Source of the DNA: Escherichia phage nieznany
DNA: 64,000 bases
Strand: one strand, 5' to 3'
Sequence record: NC_052659.1
Shown here: piece after piece, positions 27,150 through 36,949 of the stretch
Layout of the letters: the number at the start of each line of letters is the position of its first letter
Numbering within the stretch: position 1 is the first letter of the stretch
Translations under genes and position numbers: made by a program
The notes under the pieces: model-generated
Database searches by the model: none
Told to the model about the DNA's origin: nothing
What the model saw: only the letters and a program-made list of their open reading frames with translations

Positions 27150-27492
27150 AAACTGCGTCTGCGTCGATGAGTTTGTGTTTGTTGTTCCGCATGTAGTCTA
27201 AGATAAGTAGACGTTTATTGTATCTGGAGAGATTATGACCCTCTTTTCCGCCATAGTCAAAATATTTTGCAAGATCTTTACACTCAAACAAAATCAGTTC
27301 GGGAGTTTCTTCACACTGGTCTGTCTGGTACACTTGACGAATGATCATGTATACATCGTCGTCTTCCGCTAAATGCTCTACTGGTCCACATCCAGCAGGA
27401 ACAAATTCATAGTCCCATCTGATCAGATGTTTCTCTACTGCTTCAAAGAAATCCATCCTTTCATTGCGCATAATTTGAACGTCAACTAACAT
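27127..27492 (-). CDS. hypothetical protein
   Basis: 121-aa ORF. Confidence 0.45.
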   Translation of the reverse strand: MLVDVQIMRNERMDFFEAVEKHLIRWDYEFVPAGCGPVEHLAEDDDVYMIIRQVYQTDQCEETPELILFECKDLAKYFDYGGKEGHNLSRYNKRLLILDYMRNNKHKLIDADAVYGYWWMD

Positions 27493-28946
27493 GTTTCCTC
27501 CTCTCTCATTATTCCACCTGCTTGGTTGATAGCACTTAAGACGATAGCCAAATCCTCGCGCAGGAAGGTTTCACTATGACCATCTTTCATGTGCAAGCGT
27601 TCTACACAGCCAATAGACGGTAGAATCTGATCAGTCTTAGACTTTAGCTTACTCTCTAACGCCCTGCAAGCTTGGTAGGACGGCAGATCGAACAATGCTA
27701 TACGGCGCATAGAGTAATTGTTGTTTGCATTCTGCCCTTTGATCCTGATATCACTGTCCTTTGCAATCCCCAACTTGTAAGCTCCCGTGTCTTCTCCGTA
27801 CTCATCAAGAATAATATTGATGTAAAATTCTTGCATATTTCTGTTCTTACAGCCTGGACAACCTTTCCCATTGAGATAATCGGTAGGTGTGATCGTTTGC
27901 TCTCCATGCTCCCTACATAGATATTTAAACTTGCTGTTATTGCTTACCTTATCAATGAATCCTATAAATTGATCCCCTCGTTCCTGGCAAGCTTTGGTCA
28001 TACGGTAGGCCCATTGTTCAGGAGTGTAATGATAATATTTAGAACAACGGCAAGGAAGGCCACCCCTTTTCAAATGACTCATCTTCATCTCAAATTTATT
28101 ATCGCATAAGCCTTCTTTACAATAATCATCCTCTGCACATATAGGACATTCTACAATCCAGTAAACCTGACGACCTAATCTATCTACTCTATCGCTACGA
28201 TAATATTTACGCTCTACATTATCAGGACAAGCTTTTATAAAATCTTCAACATGTTGTTTATCCTCCATAGTATTCCTTTGTTTCGTCATTTCTCTTTGAC
28301 AACTGTAGCATCCAGTCCCTTGTTTAGCACTGTTTACAGTGGTAGTGCACCATTGACCATGAACCTTACACTCACAAATCAACTTAGTGCGGGAACCGTT
28401 CCACGGTTCCACATAGCCTCTAACAATCCAGGGTTTTTCTTTATAAGCTTCTTCTACTTCTTCTTTATGTTTCTCCCATGCAATCGATGTTCTTTCTCTG
28501 TTTGCTTCTCCCATACACTTCCTGCATCCACTCCCGTTTTTCGCAGAAGATATAGAAGTAGACCTCCACTCCCCATGTAAAGCACAACAACAAACCAGTT
28601 TAGTATTCCATCCTTTCCATTCTCCGTGCCATCCTGTAACAGTCCAAAACTTACCTGCCTGATTGTAAGTGGTTTGCACTTCTTCTTTATATTGCTCCCA
28701 GGTTTTTGATTTGTTTATAGATACTGCTTTACTTATAATCTCCCTACCGCATTCTGGACAACCCCTCCCTAGTTTAGCGGTATTTATGCTTGTTGTTTTC
28801 CATTCTCCATGCAGAGCACAGATGCATCTAAGTTTAGTTTTATTGCCGTTCCACGGCTCAATATAATCTACAACAGTCCAAGACTTACCTTGATAAGCTT
28901 GTTTTATATCTGTTTTATATTGTTCCCAAGTGACTATTTTTGGCAC
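27486..28946 (-). CDS. multi-repeat zinc-ribbon protein with C-terminal T5orf172 / GIY-YIG-like domain
   Basis: Three to four tandem repeats of about 60 aa (WEQYK..KL.C.C..HGEW.TT...AK.G.GC..C); C-terminal FYINIILDEYG..AYKLGIAKD..R resembles T5orf172 motif. Confidence 0.5.
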   Translation of the reverse strand: MPKIVTWEQYKTDIKQAYQGKSWTVVDYIEPWNGNKTKLRCICALHGEWKTTSINTAKLGRGCPECGREIISKAVSINKSKTWEQYKEEVQTTYNQAGKFWTVTGWHGEWKGWNTKLVCCCALHGEWRSTSISSAKNGSGCRKCMGEANRERTSIAWEKHKEEVEEAYKEKPWIVRGYVEPWNGSRTKLICECKVHGQWCTTTVNSAKQGTGCYSCQREMTKQRNTMEDKQHVEDFIKACPDNVERKYYRSDRVDRLGRQVYWIVECPICAEDDYCKEGLCDNKFEMKMSHLKRGGLPCRCSKYYHYTPEQWAYRMTKACQERGDQFIGFIDKVSNNSKFKYLCREHGEQTITPTDYLNGKGCPGCKNRNMQEFYINIILDEYGEDTGAYKLGIAKDSDIRIKGQNANNNYSMRRIALFDLPSYQACRALESKLKSKTDQILPSIGCVERLHMKDGHSETFLREDLAIVLSAINQAGGIMREEETC

Positions 28947-29034: not shown

Positions 29035-30174
29035 TTAGAACACGCTACCAAGTGTAGTGGAACGTTGTGTTACAGGCTCCAGCACCACTCGCAAAGTGTT
29101 TCCTGGTGTAGTGCTCATAACCAGAATCTTACCACCTTCAATCAGATCACAAGTTAGACCATCAGCCGTTGCACATAGATCAATATGTGGATCACCATCT
29201 TCATCCAGGATAACATAACTGTTGGTTTCCATTGCTTCCACTTCATCATCTTTCAAACTTTGTAGATAGATGTTCAGGGAACAAGCACCCGACAAAAACT
29301 TAGTAGGGGTGAAGTCGTGCCAGTTATTGATCCAATTCACCTTCAAGGTTTTGCCATTAGCTACGATAGAAGCCACATTCCATTTAGCATCGTTCCCTAA
29401 AGAAATACCCATCATTTCAAGACATTCTTTAAAAGTCATTTTTGGATAGAAATTCAATTCTTCTACAATGCCTTGAATAACATCGAAAGACAACTCTGTG
29501 CTAACATCCCATAAACGTTGGAAGTTATCTACGTGCTTTTTATTTACCAAGTTCTTATCCAAGTAATCTAACATAGTTTCACTAGACAGTTTATCGTAAT
29601 TGAAACTGTAGTAGATACGACTAGGACGGTTTACAAAATATTCCGAGATATAACCACTATTTTTAGTGAGGATGTAAAGTTTATTCCCACTTCCTGTTCC
29701 ATCCAACAAGGTCAACAGTGCTTCCTGATCTTCTTTCTTAGCGTACACTTTATCAAATTCGTCAAATAAAACAACAGCACGATCTGTAATTTTACTCATA
29801 AATTCTAAGAAGCCAGCATCTGTGTAAGGCTGTGTAACCAAAATGGTTGGAATACCTAAACCTTCTGTGGACATTAGAGACATGCTAATCAGTTTAGCTA
29901 ACATCGTCTTACCACTGCCTTTTGTCCCTGTCAGTAACACCCCAGTATTTTTACCTTCTTTACTACGACGAGCAAATGTTTTAATAACATGTGCGGCGCG
30001 ATTTTTAGTTTCCCCATAAAGAGTGTTCGGAAGAGAGAAACTTTCACCACGCACTAAAGAGTAGTTACCGTGCGGATCGCAGTTGACAACCCAAACTCCA
30101 GCAGGAAGTTTATTAGCTTCAACGCCATATTCCTTATTTACAACAGCTACATCTCCAAAAATAGTGTATTTCAT
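29035..30174 (-). CDS. AAA+ family ATPase
   Basis: Walker A GTKGSGKT and Walker B VVLFDEFD. Confidence 0.6.
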   Translation of the reverse strand: MKYTIFGDVAVVNKEYGVEANKLPAGVWVVNCDPHGNYSLVRGESFSLPNTLYGETKNRAAHVIKTFARRSKEGKNTGVLLTGTKGSGKTMLAKLISMSLMSTEGLGIPTILVTQPYTDAGFLEFMSKITDRAVVLFDEFDKVYAKKEDQEALLTLLDGTGSGNKLYILTKNSGYISEYFVNRPSRIYYSFNYDKLSSETMLDYLDKNLVNKKHVDNFQRLWDVSTELSFDVIQGIVEELNFYPKMTFKECLEMMGISLGNDAKWNVASIVANGKTLKVNWINNWHDFTPTKFLSGACSLNIYLQSLKDDEVEAMETNSYVILDEDGDPHIDLCATADGLTCDLIEGGKILVMSTTPGNTLRVVLEPVTQRSTTLGSVF

Positions 30175-31682: not shown

Positions 31683-32032
31683 AGATTATCAAAATAATTA
31701 GCGAATAAAAGACGGCCTTCTAATCGTGCCTTCCTTTGATCTTCAGCATACACGATTTCTGGATTACCACTATCAATAAAAGCATTCTCCATCTTTTCTA
31801 AAATATTTAACCACTCTCTTCTACCTGTCTCCTCTTCTTCATCTGTATACGGCGCACTTCTATTTGGATACAAAACACGCATCAGTTTAGTTGGGATCAT
31901 GACAAACGTGCTATTGTTTGCCTTCTCACGGAAGGCTTTAATTCCTGCATAGATTACCTTCCCCAAAGCTGCATCCAAATCCATCAGGTCACTTTCTTCT
32001 ATTTGAATTTCATCGTGTACAATTTTCATCAT
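31673..32032 (-). CDS. hypothetical protein
   Basis: 119-aa ORF. Confidence 0.5.
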   Translation of the reverse strand: MMKIVHDEIQIEESDLMDLDAALGKVIYAGIKAFREKANNSTFVMIPTKLMRVLYPNRSAPYTDEEEETGRREWLNILEKMENAFIDSGNPEIVYAEDQRKARLEGRLLFANYFDNLWS

Positions 32033-32313
32033 GCCTTCTCCCGATCTGCATCCAATTTCAACAAGAAGGTTGCATACTCTTCTGAGCCTTGATGCAAGAA
32101 CATACGATAAGAACTTACCAGTTTCTTCGTTGTCGTATAACGTTCCATTTCCCCAACAACACCTCCACCTAGTGTGTAGAGCACAATACCTTCAACTCCA
32201 ACATGGGTTACTACTTCAACCAAATCTCTGTTATCCCAATAGTAGTTAGGTGACACAATAAGATCTCCCACTGCCAGTTTAATGTTTGCTACTTCGTCTT
32301 GTGAATAGTACAT
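32029..32313 (-). CDS. hypothetical protein
   Basis: 94-aa ORF. Confidence 0.45.
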   Translation of the reverse strand: MYYSQDEVANIKLAVGDLIVSPNYYWDNRDLVEVVTHVGVEGIVLYTLGGGVVGEMERYTTTKKLVSSYRMFLHQGSEEYATFLLKLDADREKA

Positions 32314-32325
32314 TTTGTTCTCCTC

Positions 32326-32619
32326 TCACATTAAGACACGTTTTGTATCGATAGGTGCATTATCAAACATGTTAAGAACATTGTCAAGCAGTTTTACTAA
32401 TTCATTTGTAATTTGTTCTTTTGAACGGGAGGAAGTGAGCACTTTGCTTTCACCAACGATATGCATAACTTTTATAGGGGCATCTAAAATAATGTTGTGT
32501 TGACGATCCTCTTCAAAAGAAGCCAACCATTTCTCATTGTTACCGTGCAAGGCTACAATCACACCAAAACCGTTAATTGTTTCAGAAATATTCTTAGTTG
32601 CTAAAGTAATGTTCATCAT
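32326..32619 (-). CDS. hypothetical protein (first gene of leftward block)
   Basis: 97-aa ORF. Confidence 0.45.
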   Translation of the reverse strand: MMNITLATKNISETINGFGVIVALHGNNEKWLASFEEDRQHNIILDAPIKVMHIVGESKVLTSSRSKEQITNELVKLLDNVLNMFDNAPIDTKRVLM

Positions 32620-32674
32620 CTACCTCTCTTGTTAATGTTCATACATGATACCTGAAAATAATTTCAGATCAAGT

Positions 32675-32702
32675 ATTGACATACTTTTTAATCTTGTTAA
32701 GA
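32675..32702 (+). promoter_or_regulatory. sigma70-like promoter TTGACA-N16-TAAGAT for rightward block
   Basis: Located in divergent intergenic region 32620-32733. Confidence 0.5.
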
Positions 32703-32733
32703 TCAACTCCTACCAAACAAAAGGAGAAAACAA

Positions 32734-33177
32734 ATGCAAAACATCCAAAACATCAAACTGACTTGGCCCGAAGCTAAAGAAGCAATGAAGGAAGGTAGAC
32801 GTGTTGAGCACCGCCATTTTTGTGGTGGCGAATGGTTTGAGATGCGAGATGGTGTTATTCTCGACGAACAAGGTTATAACATGGAAACTTGGTTCAGAGG
32901 GGAAGCTTGGCAGGAAGAGGGTTGGTCTGTAATTGAAAAAGAAGACAGTAAGGAAGAAGGCGTGTTGTCTAATGTAGAACGCGAGATGAGGGAAACAAAG
33001 ATACCTGCTTTGGATTTTGTATACCTGGAAGAACTTGTGGCAGCATCTTTTGTAGCAGGAAACCTTTGGAATACACCTGTTAGCCGACTGGAGAACCAAA
33101 ATAACCCGTCTACTCGTAATCACAAGCTTTATAAGGGTAAAGGCCACAACAAATTAAAGAAAGGAAAGAAGAAATGA
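32734..33177 (+). CDS. DUF2829 / Tad2-like domain protein with Lys-rich tail (tentative)
   Basis: N-terminal W.EAKEAMKEGRRV..RHFCGGEWFEM..G..DEQGY...W resembles DUF2829 pattern; recalled similarity only. Confidence 0.35.
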   Translation: MQNIQNIKLTWPEAKEAMKEGRRVEHRHFCGGEWFEMRDGVILDEQGYNMETWFRGEAWQEEGWSVIEKEDSKEEGVLSNVEREMRETKIPALDFVYLEELVAASFVAGNLWNTPVSRLENQNNPSTRNHKLYKGKGHNKLKKGKKK

Positions 33178-33320
33178 TCTACAAAAACAAGTTCACTGGT
33201 TGTCTTCGTAAATTTATCGATAAGAAAGGGTATGTTTCTCTTGACAACGGGGCTACATGGATAGAGAATGGCGCTTCAGAACAATTGATTAAAGCTTTGC
33301 CTTACTACGAGGAGGTTTAA
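33174..33320 (+). CDS. micro-protein (48 aa)
   Basis: ATG overlapping upstream stop (ATGA). Confidence 0.35.
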   Translation: MIYKNKFTGCLRKFIDKKGYVSLDNGATWIENGASEQLIKALPYYEEV

Positions 33321-33644
33321 ATGTCAAACAGTCTGTTTAGCGTGTCAATTGCACCACGTGTCAATATCCGTTGTCAGTTTGTTACTTTACCTGGTGTAAC
33401 GCATATCACATTAGAATACGATCCTCGCTCACGAGACAACCCAATCACAGGGAAAATTGATTGTGCTTATGGAGACTTTGTTATGGATCACCAAACCCTC
33501 TTATGCTGTGTGCAACGCTTACAGGCAGGATCTTTATACATCTTTAAGAAAACAGTGTTCCAAGAGATTGCTCAAGCAGTTGAAAGCGGTATGGAGACTC
33601 TTAACGTTATGATTGAAGCAGCCAACCAGAAGGAGGTTTTATGA
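33321..33644 (+). CDS. hypothetical protein
   Basis: 107-aa ORF, GAGGAGG RBS. Confidence 0.45.
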   Translation: MSNSLFSVSIAPRVNIRCQFVTLPGVTHITLEYDPRSRDNPITGKIDCAYGDFVMDHQTLLCCVQRLQAGSLYIFKKTVFQEIAQAVESGMETLNVMIEAANQKEVL

Positions 33645-33898
33645 CACTTTATCACGTAACCACTGAAGGCGATACCGAAGGTCGTACTACGAAAGATTTA
33701 GGGTATGTTGAAGCAGATTCCCCTGAACACGCAATTAATTATTTGCATTCCATCGGTAAATATGCGACTTATGAATATACTATCTACAAGGTTGAAGTTA
33801 GCCCTATACAAGTGGCAACTCCTATGGTAGAGTTGAAACATCTTAAGGCAAAAGTAAGACCTGGTATAGTGTCCGATTACAAAGGGGAAGTAAAGTGA
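33641..33898 (+). CDS. hypothetical protein
   Basis: 85-aa ORF, coupled start. Confidence 0.45.
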   Translation: MTLYHVTTEGDTEGRTTKDLGYVEADSPEHAINYLHSIGKYATYEYTIYKVEVSPIQVATPMVELKHLKAKVRPGIVSDYKGEVK

Positions 33899-34107
33899 GT
33901 GGATGGATTAAAGTATCTGGTACCGAGGATGTTCCTATCGGAGAGTGGCTTGTAATCATGGCAAACGGCAAGAAGGGATTCTGTGAAGTTAACAAAACAC
34001 GCAATGGCACGATAGCTGTTATCAATGGTCATTTTTATTTTGACTTGGCACCTGTGATCGCATACCATGCACTACCAACATATAAAGAGGAGATTAACAA
34101 TGGCTAA
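33895..34107 (+). CDS. hypothetical protein
   Basis: 70-aa ORF. Confidence 0.45.
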   Translation: MSGWIKVSGTEDVPIGEWLVIMANGKKGFCEVNKTRNGTIAVINGHFYFDLAPVIAYHALPTYKEEINNG

Positions 34108-34423
34108 CAAAGAACCACATGTATACACTGCACTGGTAAAGCACTTGAACAAAGAACGTAACAAGATCATTGCAGATTATCGTAAATTTAAACGTAGTAG
34201 TCTAAATCGTAAATACATGCCACATGCAGCTTTTGACGCTACACGTGCAGTATTTCGTGCAAAGATTGCGGAAATGGATAATCTGCTTAAGCTTGCACGA
34301 TTATCTATTCAGGCATCCAAAGTAACAGGGGTCACTCACTTCTTTGACTTCGATACTAAAGCACTATATGCACCAGAAGCAGGTGAACAATTGATTTCTC
34401 TACTTACCAAAAATAAGTGTTGA
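34100..34423 (+). CDS. hypothetical protein
   Basis: Start at ATG 34100 after AAGAGGAG RBS. Confidence 0.45.
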   Translation: MANKEPHVYTALVKHLNKERNKIIADYRKFKRSSLNRKYMPHAAFDATRAVFRAKIAEMDNLLKLARLSIQASKVTGVTHFFDFDTKALYAPEAGEQLISLLTKNKC

Positions 34424-34480
34424 CTTTTTTCAAAAAATATGCTACCCTAACCCCGAAGGGTCGAGCGATAGCGAGTATAG
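34420..34480 (+). repeat. about 60-bp repeated element (copy 2) with promoter-like TTGACT-N17-TACCCT and CGAGCGATAGCGAGTA box
   Basis: Near-identical to 7458-7520. Confidence 0.45.
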
Positions 34481-34592
34481 ATTATGTAATAGATTAATCT
34501 CTATCGTTAGATGTTCGAAGAACAGAGATTTAAGTACTTGTTCTTATCGGTAGATGATCGTAAGATCAAGAACAATAATAGGAGAGTGTGTT

Positions 34593-36580: not shown

Positions 36581-36949
36581 ATGAAGGTATTAAACTTTTA
36601 CCATTTAGGCAAAACAATCCCAGATGGTGCTGTTTATATTGGTAGAGCAATGCCACATATGGGACTAAAAGCCTCTAAGTTTGCAAACCCTTTTAAGTTA
36701 AAAGATGATGAACCACGAGGATCAACTATACAAAGGTATAAAGAGTGGTTGTGGGAGCAAATTCGTTGTGGTAAGATCACTCTTGAAGATTTATTAGAGT
36801 TAGAAGGGAAAGATTTAGTTTGCTTCTGCTCCCCTCAACCTTGTCATGGAGATGTATTGATAGCAGCCGTGGCCTGGGCTAGAAAAGAGTGGGACAAAAG
36901 GCATCCTACTTATGTAGACAATTATTGGATTTGGGAGGAGAATTTTTGA
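36581..36949 (+). CDS. DUF4326-like protein
   Basis: YIGR..GL..S.FANPF ... LVCFCSPQPCHGDVL pattern. Confidence 0.4.
   Translation: MKVLNFYHLGKTIPDGAVYIGRAMPHMGLKASKFANPFKLKDDEPRGSTIQRYKEWLWEQIRCGKITLEDLLELEGKDLVCFCSPQPCHGDVLIAAVAWARKEWDKRHPTYVDNYWIWEENF

Follow-up and report, generated by a model that had tools for sequence, protein, structure and literature searches.

The gene described here lies in a 64,000-nucleotide stretch of the genome of Escherichia phage nieznany (NC_052659.1), which is referred to below as the window. The source phage is a phAPEC8-like myovirus of the genus Phapecoctavirus, whose genome measures about 150 kb, and bases 32000-34500 of the window are 98.6% identical to Escherichia phage vB_EcoM_01. 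The features of the locus are listed in Table 1. The open reading frame is real, and the original prediction had placed both of its ends exactly. It encodes a protein of 147 amino acids and is the first plus-strand gene past a divergent intergenic region of 114 bp, the closest leftward gene ending at 32619. The early-gene-type position that had been claimed for it was borne out, as the rightward block opens with it, directly past a divergent promoter-like region, and we infer early expression of the protein.

The start codon is preceded by a Shine-Dalgarno sequence and by a candidate sigma-70-like promoter, from which transcription would be predicted to start near 32710. This promoter had been described as strong. 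A candidate was indeed present, but its strength is plausible only, because seven sigma-70-like sites were counted in the 1.2-kb region compared to 3.1 +/- 2.0 in shuffled sequences. The best promoter-like match of the region (TTGACA-17-GATAAT, 11 of 12 positions; 32359..32387, minus strand) was located inside the leftward gene 32326..32619 and would drive the next leftward gene. On the other side, the stop codon overlaps the start of a 48-aa gene, whose ribosome-binding site sits within the final Lys/Gly codons of the 147-aa protein. The same 4-nt stop/start overlap was present in three distant loci (L006, L007 and L008).

Table 1. Features at and around the gene for the 147-aa protein, in coordinates of the window.
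Feature	Position	Strand	Details
NADAR-domain protein, 180 aa	26395..26937	-	PF08719, E 3.4e-35; leftward block, ~6 kb away
486-aa protein with three CapR-homology domains	27486..28946	-	PF21817, 1.4e-28; 'endonuclease' in phage ukendt
379-aa AAA/nSTAND-like ATPase	29035..30174	-	adjoins the 486-aa CapR protein; 'ATPase' in phage ukendt
Phage_tudor (PF24144)	32029..32313	-	
DUF7325	32326..32619	-	
Candidate sigma-70-like promoter	32676..32703	+	TTGACA-16 nt-TG-n-TAAGAT; consensus match only, 10/12 positions
Shine-Dalgarno AAGGAG	32721..32726	+	7 nt before the ATG, read from the sequence
CDS, 147 aa	32734..33177	+	ATG 32734; TGA ends 33177
N-terminal Tad2-fold domain (predicted), residues 8-68	32755..32937	+	
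Acidic linker of variable length, residues 69-92	32938..33009	+	indels among homologues; pLDDT ~48-54
Conserved helical segment, residues 93-120	33010..33093	+	LDFVYLEELVAASFVAGNLWNTPVSRLE
Polybasic tail, residues 121-147	33094..33174	+	NQNNPSTRNHKLYKGKGHNKLKKGKKK; 9 K, 1 R, net +10
Tail core motif K-G-[KR]-G-H-N-[KR]-L	33133-33156	+	invariant in 22 aligned homologues
Downstream gene, 48 aa	33174..33320	+	phrog_2381; ATG overlaps the stop of the 147-aa CDS (ATGA)
DUF7247	33321..33644	+	
DUF4326 protein	36581..36949	+	PF14216, 9.4e-22; same rightward block as the 147-aa CDS

The immediate neighbours of the gene were all DUF or PHROG families and gave no functional clue. Phage_tudor, DUF7325 and DUF7247 are recently defined Pfam families, and DUF7325 stays beside the homologue in the distant loci L007 and L008. 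The homologue opens the rightward block, or lies close to its beginning, on four distant syntenic contigs (139-154 kb), and the first-gene position was kept in L006. Proteins with recognisable domains were encoded further away in both blocks (Table 1). NADAR enzymes process NAD/ADP-ribose adducts, and phage NADARs have been tied to the reversal of ADP-ribosylation by DarT. In L008 the leftward block harboured a gene of the Gad2 family (anti-Gabija, PF26128; 1..662, minus strand) about 3.3 kb from the homologue P0038, which suggests that the divergent early region gathers anti-defence genes in relatives of this phage.

Residues 1-128 of the protein were 100% identical to the phAPEC8 sequence, and the orthologue in phage ukendt (JR326_gp042) is annotated as a hypothetical protein. 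The gene family was not found mentioned in a search of the literature. In PHROGs, the entire protein matched phrog_22208 (E 2.7e-102) and residues 7-68 matched phrog_3474 (5e-30). Identity across 21 clusters of homologues was 60-97%, and 189 relatives at E<1e-3 emerged when 1.84 billion representatives were searched exhaustively with HMMER. Nearly all of these relatives matched profile positions ~5-65 only, and most were standalone proteins of 60-70 aa. The domain was found in 480 enterobacterial phage records, again mostly in the standalone form, which is carried by Klebsiella T4-likes, rV5-likes, Salmonella T5-likes and phages of Erwinia and Cronobacter, among others. The full-length form was restricted to Phapecoctavirus-like genomes, with 68 records containing 80% or more of the protein. 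One match of 2489 aa (P0051), to a eukaryotic protein made of Tudor/Agenet repeats, consisted of 15 weak stretches and was treated as spurious; it is probably due to a generic small beta-barrel likeness.

The T5-like Salmonella phage faergetype encodes a standalone homologue of 66 aa (L004 5001..5201, plus strand; positions 920-1120 of the record), which is encoded about 1 kb away from the end of the genome and a few kb from the gene of an A2-like DNA-binding protein. This location is what we take to be the T5 pre-early, first-step-transfer region, devoted to host takeover. A gene annotated as an endonuclease that nicks the abasic sites made by host Ung was also present nearby.

The structure of the protein was predicted with AlphaFold2 from a 112-sequence alignment. 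Residues 8-68 were modelled confidently, and the C-terminal half was modelled poorly (pLDDT 48-69) and was left out of the fold inference. When the domain was modelled alone, a pLDDT of 88.2 and a pTM of 0.74 were obtained, and the model comprised helix alpha1 (11-19), beta strands at 23-26, 35-38 and 41-44, a short helix (58-61) and a last beta strand at 64-67. This predicted arrangement contains the elements of the Tad2 fold, namely alpha1, a small antiparallel sheet and the C-terminal strand with its W. In a Foldseek search of the PDB, the top 17 matches were all Tad2 chains (SPO1 Tad2, ModTad2 and SptTad2), with a target-normalised TM of 0.41-0.63 and a probability of up to 0.99, as for the Tad2 structures 8wje, 8smf and 8sme, at E values of only 0.1-1.2. 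Against BFVD, the family itself was retrieved first, followed by proteins named DUF2829 or Tad2-like. The resemblance of fold is therefore real. Some of these viral proteins, such as A0A8S5RI74 and A0A2K9VAK2 (Klebsiella phage KpS110), are just 60-63 aa long and share the minimal size and fold of the domain (E 1.5e-4 to 3e-2, query-normalised TM 0.65-0.69, 23-33% identity); they are standalone and do not have the C-terminal module of the 147-aa protein. This suggests a continuum between the family and the fringe of PF11195.

The original prediction had assigned the N-terminal 70 residues to DUF2829 (PF11195). The corresponding HMM check did not support membership, as Pfam hmmscan gave no family at E<=10 for the 147-aa protein or for 21 close homologues. 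Neither the protein nor a 22-sequence profile retrieved anything relevant from NCBIfam or from the PDB sequences, and a weak match to CutA (E 0.27) was dismissed as chance. For profile comparison, SPO1 Tad2 (gp34.65, 89 aa) was recovered from the SPO1 genome, PF11195 homologues were gathered, and a Tad2 HMM was built from 64 PF11195 proteins. This HMM did not report the 147-aa protein, and the best score in its family was 12.8 bits, compared with 97-138 bits for true members. Weak PF11195 matches were obtained for 34 of 100 relatives (best 2.9e-4), and other Pfam families each recurred in four relatives or fewer. Alignment of the family profile to that of Tad2 with hhalign gave a probability of 82.9%, or 93.7% with trimmed alignments (pairwise E 1.9e-7), with the confident alignment covering alpha1-beta2 only and the remainder being of low confidence. 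Reciprocal HMM searches between Tad2 and the family fell in the twilight zone. The residues collinear with SPO1 Tad2 were A14/A10, G21/G17, K/R23, V24, the aromatic residue 29/25, W53/W73 and G-W64/D-W85. The N-terminal ~60 residues are a remote homologue of Tad2/DUF2829. For the original prediction the outcome was thus divided, a DUF2829 match being absent and structural similarity to Tad2 being present in the model.

SPO1 Tad2 binds gcADPR via W25, N26, W73 and D79, with contributions from T78, S76, D67 and H71 (10.1101/2023.05.01.538930), and in HgmTad2 the substitutions W21A/N22A and S90A/T92A/D93A markedly lower gcADPR binding (PMC10680739). The gcADPR-contact positions were 98-100% conserved in the 64-sequence Tad2 alignment. 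Among the SPO1 contacts W25, N26, W73, S76, T78 and D79, W73 alone was retained in the 147-aa protein, as W53, and the wider family has W at this position in only 30% of its members. W25 is replaced by the aromatic F29 (F in 95% of the wider family) and N26 by C30 (T, S or C in the family), and S76, T78 and D79 correspond to G56, E57 and A58, respectively, at positions that are variable in the family. The GWN motif, which in Tad2 sits in the beta1-beta2 loop, was found in none of 169 family members, compared with 117 of 121 Tad2 homologues; this position reads [YFH]-F-[TSC] across the family and H28-F29-C30 in the 147-aa protein. The pattern W..S.[TS]D, whose residues line the Tad2 pocket (W87, S90, T92 and D93 in HgmTad2), was likewise found in none of the 169 members and reads W..G-EA here. 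Four further residues that are invariant in Tad2 (R22, K28, M30 and T65) are H, G, E and D, respectively, in the 147-aa protein.

The beta2-beta3 insertion with helix alpha2 was also absent, leaving a gap of 24 columns in the hhalign alignment, and the model runs from the beta strand 35-38 straight to that at 41-44. In Tad2, alpha2 is part of the V-shaped dimer interface (10.1101/2023.05.01.538930). Because this dimer-interface helix is deleted, a pocket-forming oligomer of the Tad2 type, a homotetramer in which the ligand pockets sit between protomers, may not form. The family has a signature of its own, consisting of A14 (95%), G21 (97%), H26 (87%), F29 (95%), E33 (98%), E45 (95%), G47 (93%) and W64 (94%), and several of these residues fall at positions equivalent to the pocket loops of Tad2. 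The 147-aa protein carries all eight and scored 94.4 bits with an HMM built from 100 members. The domain constitutes a family in its own right (phrog_3474 / phrog_22208), which is without a Pfam entry. Since the defining residues and the insertion of Tad2 are missing and another signature is found instead, the N-terminal domain was classed as a sister family that shares the Tad2 fold, and is not a Tad2. Of the likeness that had been proposed, the fold and a remote homology are retained, while membership in PF11195 and function as a gcADPR sponge are not, the ligand residues being missing.

The protein was compared with named phage systems. Tad2 (SPO1 gp34.65; PF11195 'Tad2-like', formerly DUF2829) has in common with it the N-terminal helix on a small antiparallel sheet, and it too is small, phage-encoded and located where an early gene would be. 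Unlike Tad2, the 147-aa protein bears an extra C-terminal extension of 80 residues with a polybasic tail. In AcrIIA7/HgmTad2 (PDB 8KBI), an insertion at 32-72 binds cGG/cGAMP, and W21/N22 and S90/T92/D93 serve gcADPR binding (PMC10680739); neither this insertion nor these gcADPR residues were found in the 147-aa protein. ModTad2 (PDB 9EIB) binds His-ADPR. With TadIV-1 (T4 Vs.3), Sequestin, Tad1 and Acb2, the common logic would be that of a small, early, signal-sequestering phage protein. TadIV-1, Sequestin and Acb2 are helical and of unrelated folds (PMC13243611; 10.1101/2025.07.12.664507), and no phage sponge of that set was retrieved in the fold searches. TadIV-1 and Sequestin were accordingly rejected as counterparts of either the N- or the C-terminal part, being helical and absent from the fold searches (10.1101/2025.07.12.664507), and the Sequestin family PF21825 gave no match. 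Atd1, an anti-TIR protein reported in Phapecoctavirus, was also rejected, as it is an unrelated MazG-like enzyme.

The Lys-rich tail that had been described from the sequence is real and carries a charge opposite to that of the rest of the protein, residues 1-120 having a net charge of -11 and residues 121-147 of +10. Conservation was highest in residues 93-147, where it exceeded that of the Tad2-like domain, in the helix LDFVYLEELVAASF, the stretch W-x-TPVSR and the tail NHKLYKGKGHNKLKKGKKK, which was invariant in 22 sequences. The C-terminal helix together with the tail KGKGHNKLKKGKKK is the most conserved part of the protein. Helices were predicted, with low confidence, at 95-107 and 115-119. 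The invariant columns of segment 93-120 were L98, E99, L101, A103, A104, S105, G109, W112, P115, V116, S117 and R118, and the helix core D-[FY]-x-x-L-E-x-x-h-x-A recurred in the distant homologues P0022, P0023, P0025 and P0038. The tail, as KG[KR]GHN[KR]LQKR(G)KKK, was retained in P0022, P0023, P0029 and P0038, the N-domains of which are only 40-48% identical. Between the 147-aa protein and P0023, 13 of 15 tail residues were the same and 7 codon changes were synonymous. From this comparison the tail is under selection at the protein level, because the codons differ synonymously while the residues stay. The final Lys/Gly codons may be constrained at the DNA level too, because the downstream ribosome-binding site is located there.

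No second copy of the tail motif was found within the 64-kb window by a six-frame regular expression, and a degenerate DNA pattern for the motif detected one IMG/VR locus only, on a 153-kb contig. On these two grounds the tail is not a shared module, and it is confined to Phapecoctavirus-like phages. When the C-terminal 58 residues were used in a word-indexed search for homologues, just two fragments turned up, both of the same family. Searches of Pfam and NCBIfam did not detect a nucleic-acid-binding or other known domain in the C-terminal part, and to our knowledge the polybasic tail has no known counterpart. In P0015, P0017, P0021 and P0290, the N-domain was truncated or without G21 and W64, and the C-terminal part was kept. 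Other homologues keep just an N-terminal fragment, and P0017, P0041 and P0042 were truncated or frameshifted. These truncated or degenerate lineages could reflect pseudogenisation or the independent use of the two modules.

Among the 46 longer relatives, SEC-C tails were the only domain fusions that recurred. P0110, P0113 and P0118 end in true SEC-C motifs (SecA-type, zinc-binding; PF02810; E down to 1.9e-8), placed at the position equivalent to the tail. Basic tails of other kinds terminate P0048, P0060 and P0109, and short basic additions at the C-terminus recur on the N-domain. SEC-C is also a short, basic, Gly-rich C-terminal tail. The SEC-C pattern C-x-C-x8-C-[CH] was not found in the tail of the 147-aa protein, which contains no Cys and gave no Pfam match. 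By eye, the tail spacing R-N-x5-G-x-G-x4-K resembles that of SEC-C, a likeness which we take to be compositional and a lead only.

The reading that we tentatively favour is that of a two-module phage accessory protein, in which a Tad2-like binder whose pocket has been re-tooled is joined to a polybasic tether. The first module (residues 8-68) is a minimal Tad2 fold from a separate family that is widespread in enterobacterial phages. Its pocket-lining positions remain conserved with an altered chemistry (F29 for W25, T/S/C30 for N26, and loss of S-x-T-D), and E33 and E45 are nearly invariant new acidic residues. This module may oligomerise and sequester a small molecule in the manner of Tad2. 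The ligand would probably be a host signal derived from a nucleotide, either distinct from 3'cADPR/2'cADPR or of the same class and bound differently. The second module (residues 93-147), formed by a putative amphipathic helix and the conserved tail and specific to Phapecoctavirus-like phages, might provide an oligomerisation surface replacing the missing alpha2 insertion, or a tether to something polyanionic such as nucleic acid, ribosome or membrane. Sponges of the Tad2 family have diversified to take 3'cADPR/2'cADPR, His-ADPR, cGG/cGAMP, cCMP/cUMP and N7-cADPR (PMC10680739; 10.1101/2025.08.24.671296), and about a quarter of tested sponge homologues showed no inhibition of any known system. 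The fold, the remote homology and the conserved pocket positions argue for a binder, as do the first-gene position, the location of the standalone homologue in the T5-like phage, the Gad2-family gene near the homologue in relatives, and the NADAR and DUF4326 genes within 6 kb. Against it, the new invariant residues are two glutamates, whereas known sponges have positively charged pockets (10.1101/2025.07.12.664507), and the gene is conserved genus-wide (68 records), unlike typical anti-defence genes, which are patchy. The sequence comparison also suggests that the key activity may lie outside the Tad2-like domain, because the C-terminal module is more conserved and is kept in variants with a truncated N-domain. 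A wider form of the binder reading, which we regard as speculative and unlikely as it stands, would make the ~60-aa mini-Tad2 an unrecognised sponge family of virulent enterobacterial phages, in which the F/E/E pocket takes an immune or metabolic signal outside the Tad2 range, possibly from an uncharacterised defence system, and the Phapecoctavirus tail localises the sponge.

A serious alternative is that the Tad2 fold serves as a scaffold for binding a macromolecule. The protein would then be a host-takeover factor with its essential activity in the C-terminal module and without small-molecule sequestration; the helix and polybasic tail would dock on DNA/RNA, ribosome, membrane or a host protein, and the acidic N-domain would modulate this or recruit a partner. 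The position of most invariant columns in the C-terminal 50 residues, the protein-level selection on the tail, the strong charge dipole (-11 in the body, +10 in the tail) and the retention of the gene across the genus are consistent with such a role, as are the persistence of the C-terminal part in P0015, P0017, P0021 and P0290 despite a truncated or degenerate N-domain and the different basic or metal-binding tails (SEC-C and others) of other N-domain relatives. We consider it only slightly less likely than the binder reading. Against it, most family members are tail-less standalone proteins of 60-70 aa, so the N-domain must work alone, and the residues conserved in it coincide with pocket positions of Tad2 instead of being scattered over the surface. 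Moreover, the searches above revealed neither a nucleic-acid-binding domain nor any other known one in the C-terminal part, and the truncated variants may simply be pseudogenes or artefacts of gene calling. In favour of a bona fide Tad2 anti-Thoeris sponge as originally predicted, which would be a homotetramer sequestering 1''-3'/1''-2' gcADPR, the protein shares with Tad2 the fold, the alpha1-beta1 motif EA..AMK.G..V, an aromatic residue at the W25 position, W53/W73 and G-W64/D-W85, as well as the small size and the early-gene position, and Thoeris systems occur in E. coli. This is improbable, given that PF11195 was not matched at E<=10 by the protein or 21 close homologues, that the Tad2 HMM was silent on it (family best 12.8 versus 97-138 bits), that N26, S76, T78 and D79 have given way to C, G, E and A at positions that vary across the family, and that the alpha2 insertion, on which the V-shaped dimer depends, is missing. 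The marked loss of gcADPR binding in the HgmTad2 mutants W21A/N22A and S90A/T92A/D93A (PMC10680739) also counts against it. That the reading frame is a chance ORF or a decaying gene without a functional protein might be thought from the truncated or frameshifted homologues (P0041, P0042 and P0017), but it is hardly credible beside a good Shine-Dalgarno sequence, a confidently predicted fold, 60-97% identity in 21 clusters with 189 relatives at E<1e-3, and the synonymous substitutions in a tail whose residues are kept; as judged from sequence conservation, it is effectively refuted.

With the Tad2 fold but without the ligand-binding residues, the 147-aa protein is a testable anti-defence candidate and no recognisable anti-Thoeris protein. 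Its N-terminal domain represents a minimal Tad2-fold family in which another pocket is conserved and which hundreds of phages infecting E. coli, Klebsiella and Salmonella carry, and Phapecoctavirus itself is under consideration for phage therapy. This makes the domain a cheap and well-defined candidate to be screened against Thoeris, CBASS and Pycsar and to be used in ligand fishing. The sponges Tad1, Tad2 and Acb2 have repeatedly opened the way to new bacterial immune signals (10.1101/2025.08.24.671296). If the domain binds nothing, the Tad2 fold serves other purposes too, and caution would be needed with 'anti-Thoeris' labels for DUF2829 look-alikes. The polybasic tail, invariant and selected as a peptide, is a second and independent puzzle.

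Some records of the family deserve a comment. In LR597654.1 (H24; phAPEC8_ev052) the homologue match falls on a feature labelled 'tRNA methyltransferase', and in OY979426.1 (H30), from a Klebsiella phage, features named 'portal protein | unknown function' cover the match. Both labels seem to result from annotation errors or from features that overlap. One relative of 175 aa, P0043, contains two tandem copies of the mini-Tad2 domain.
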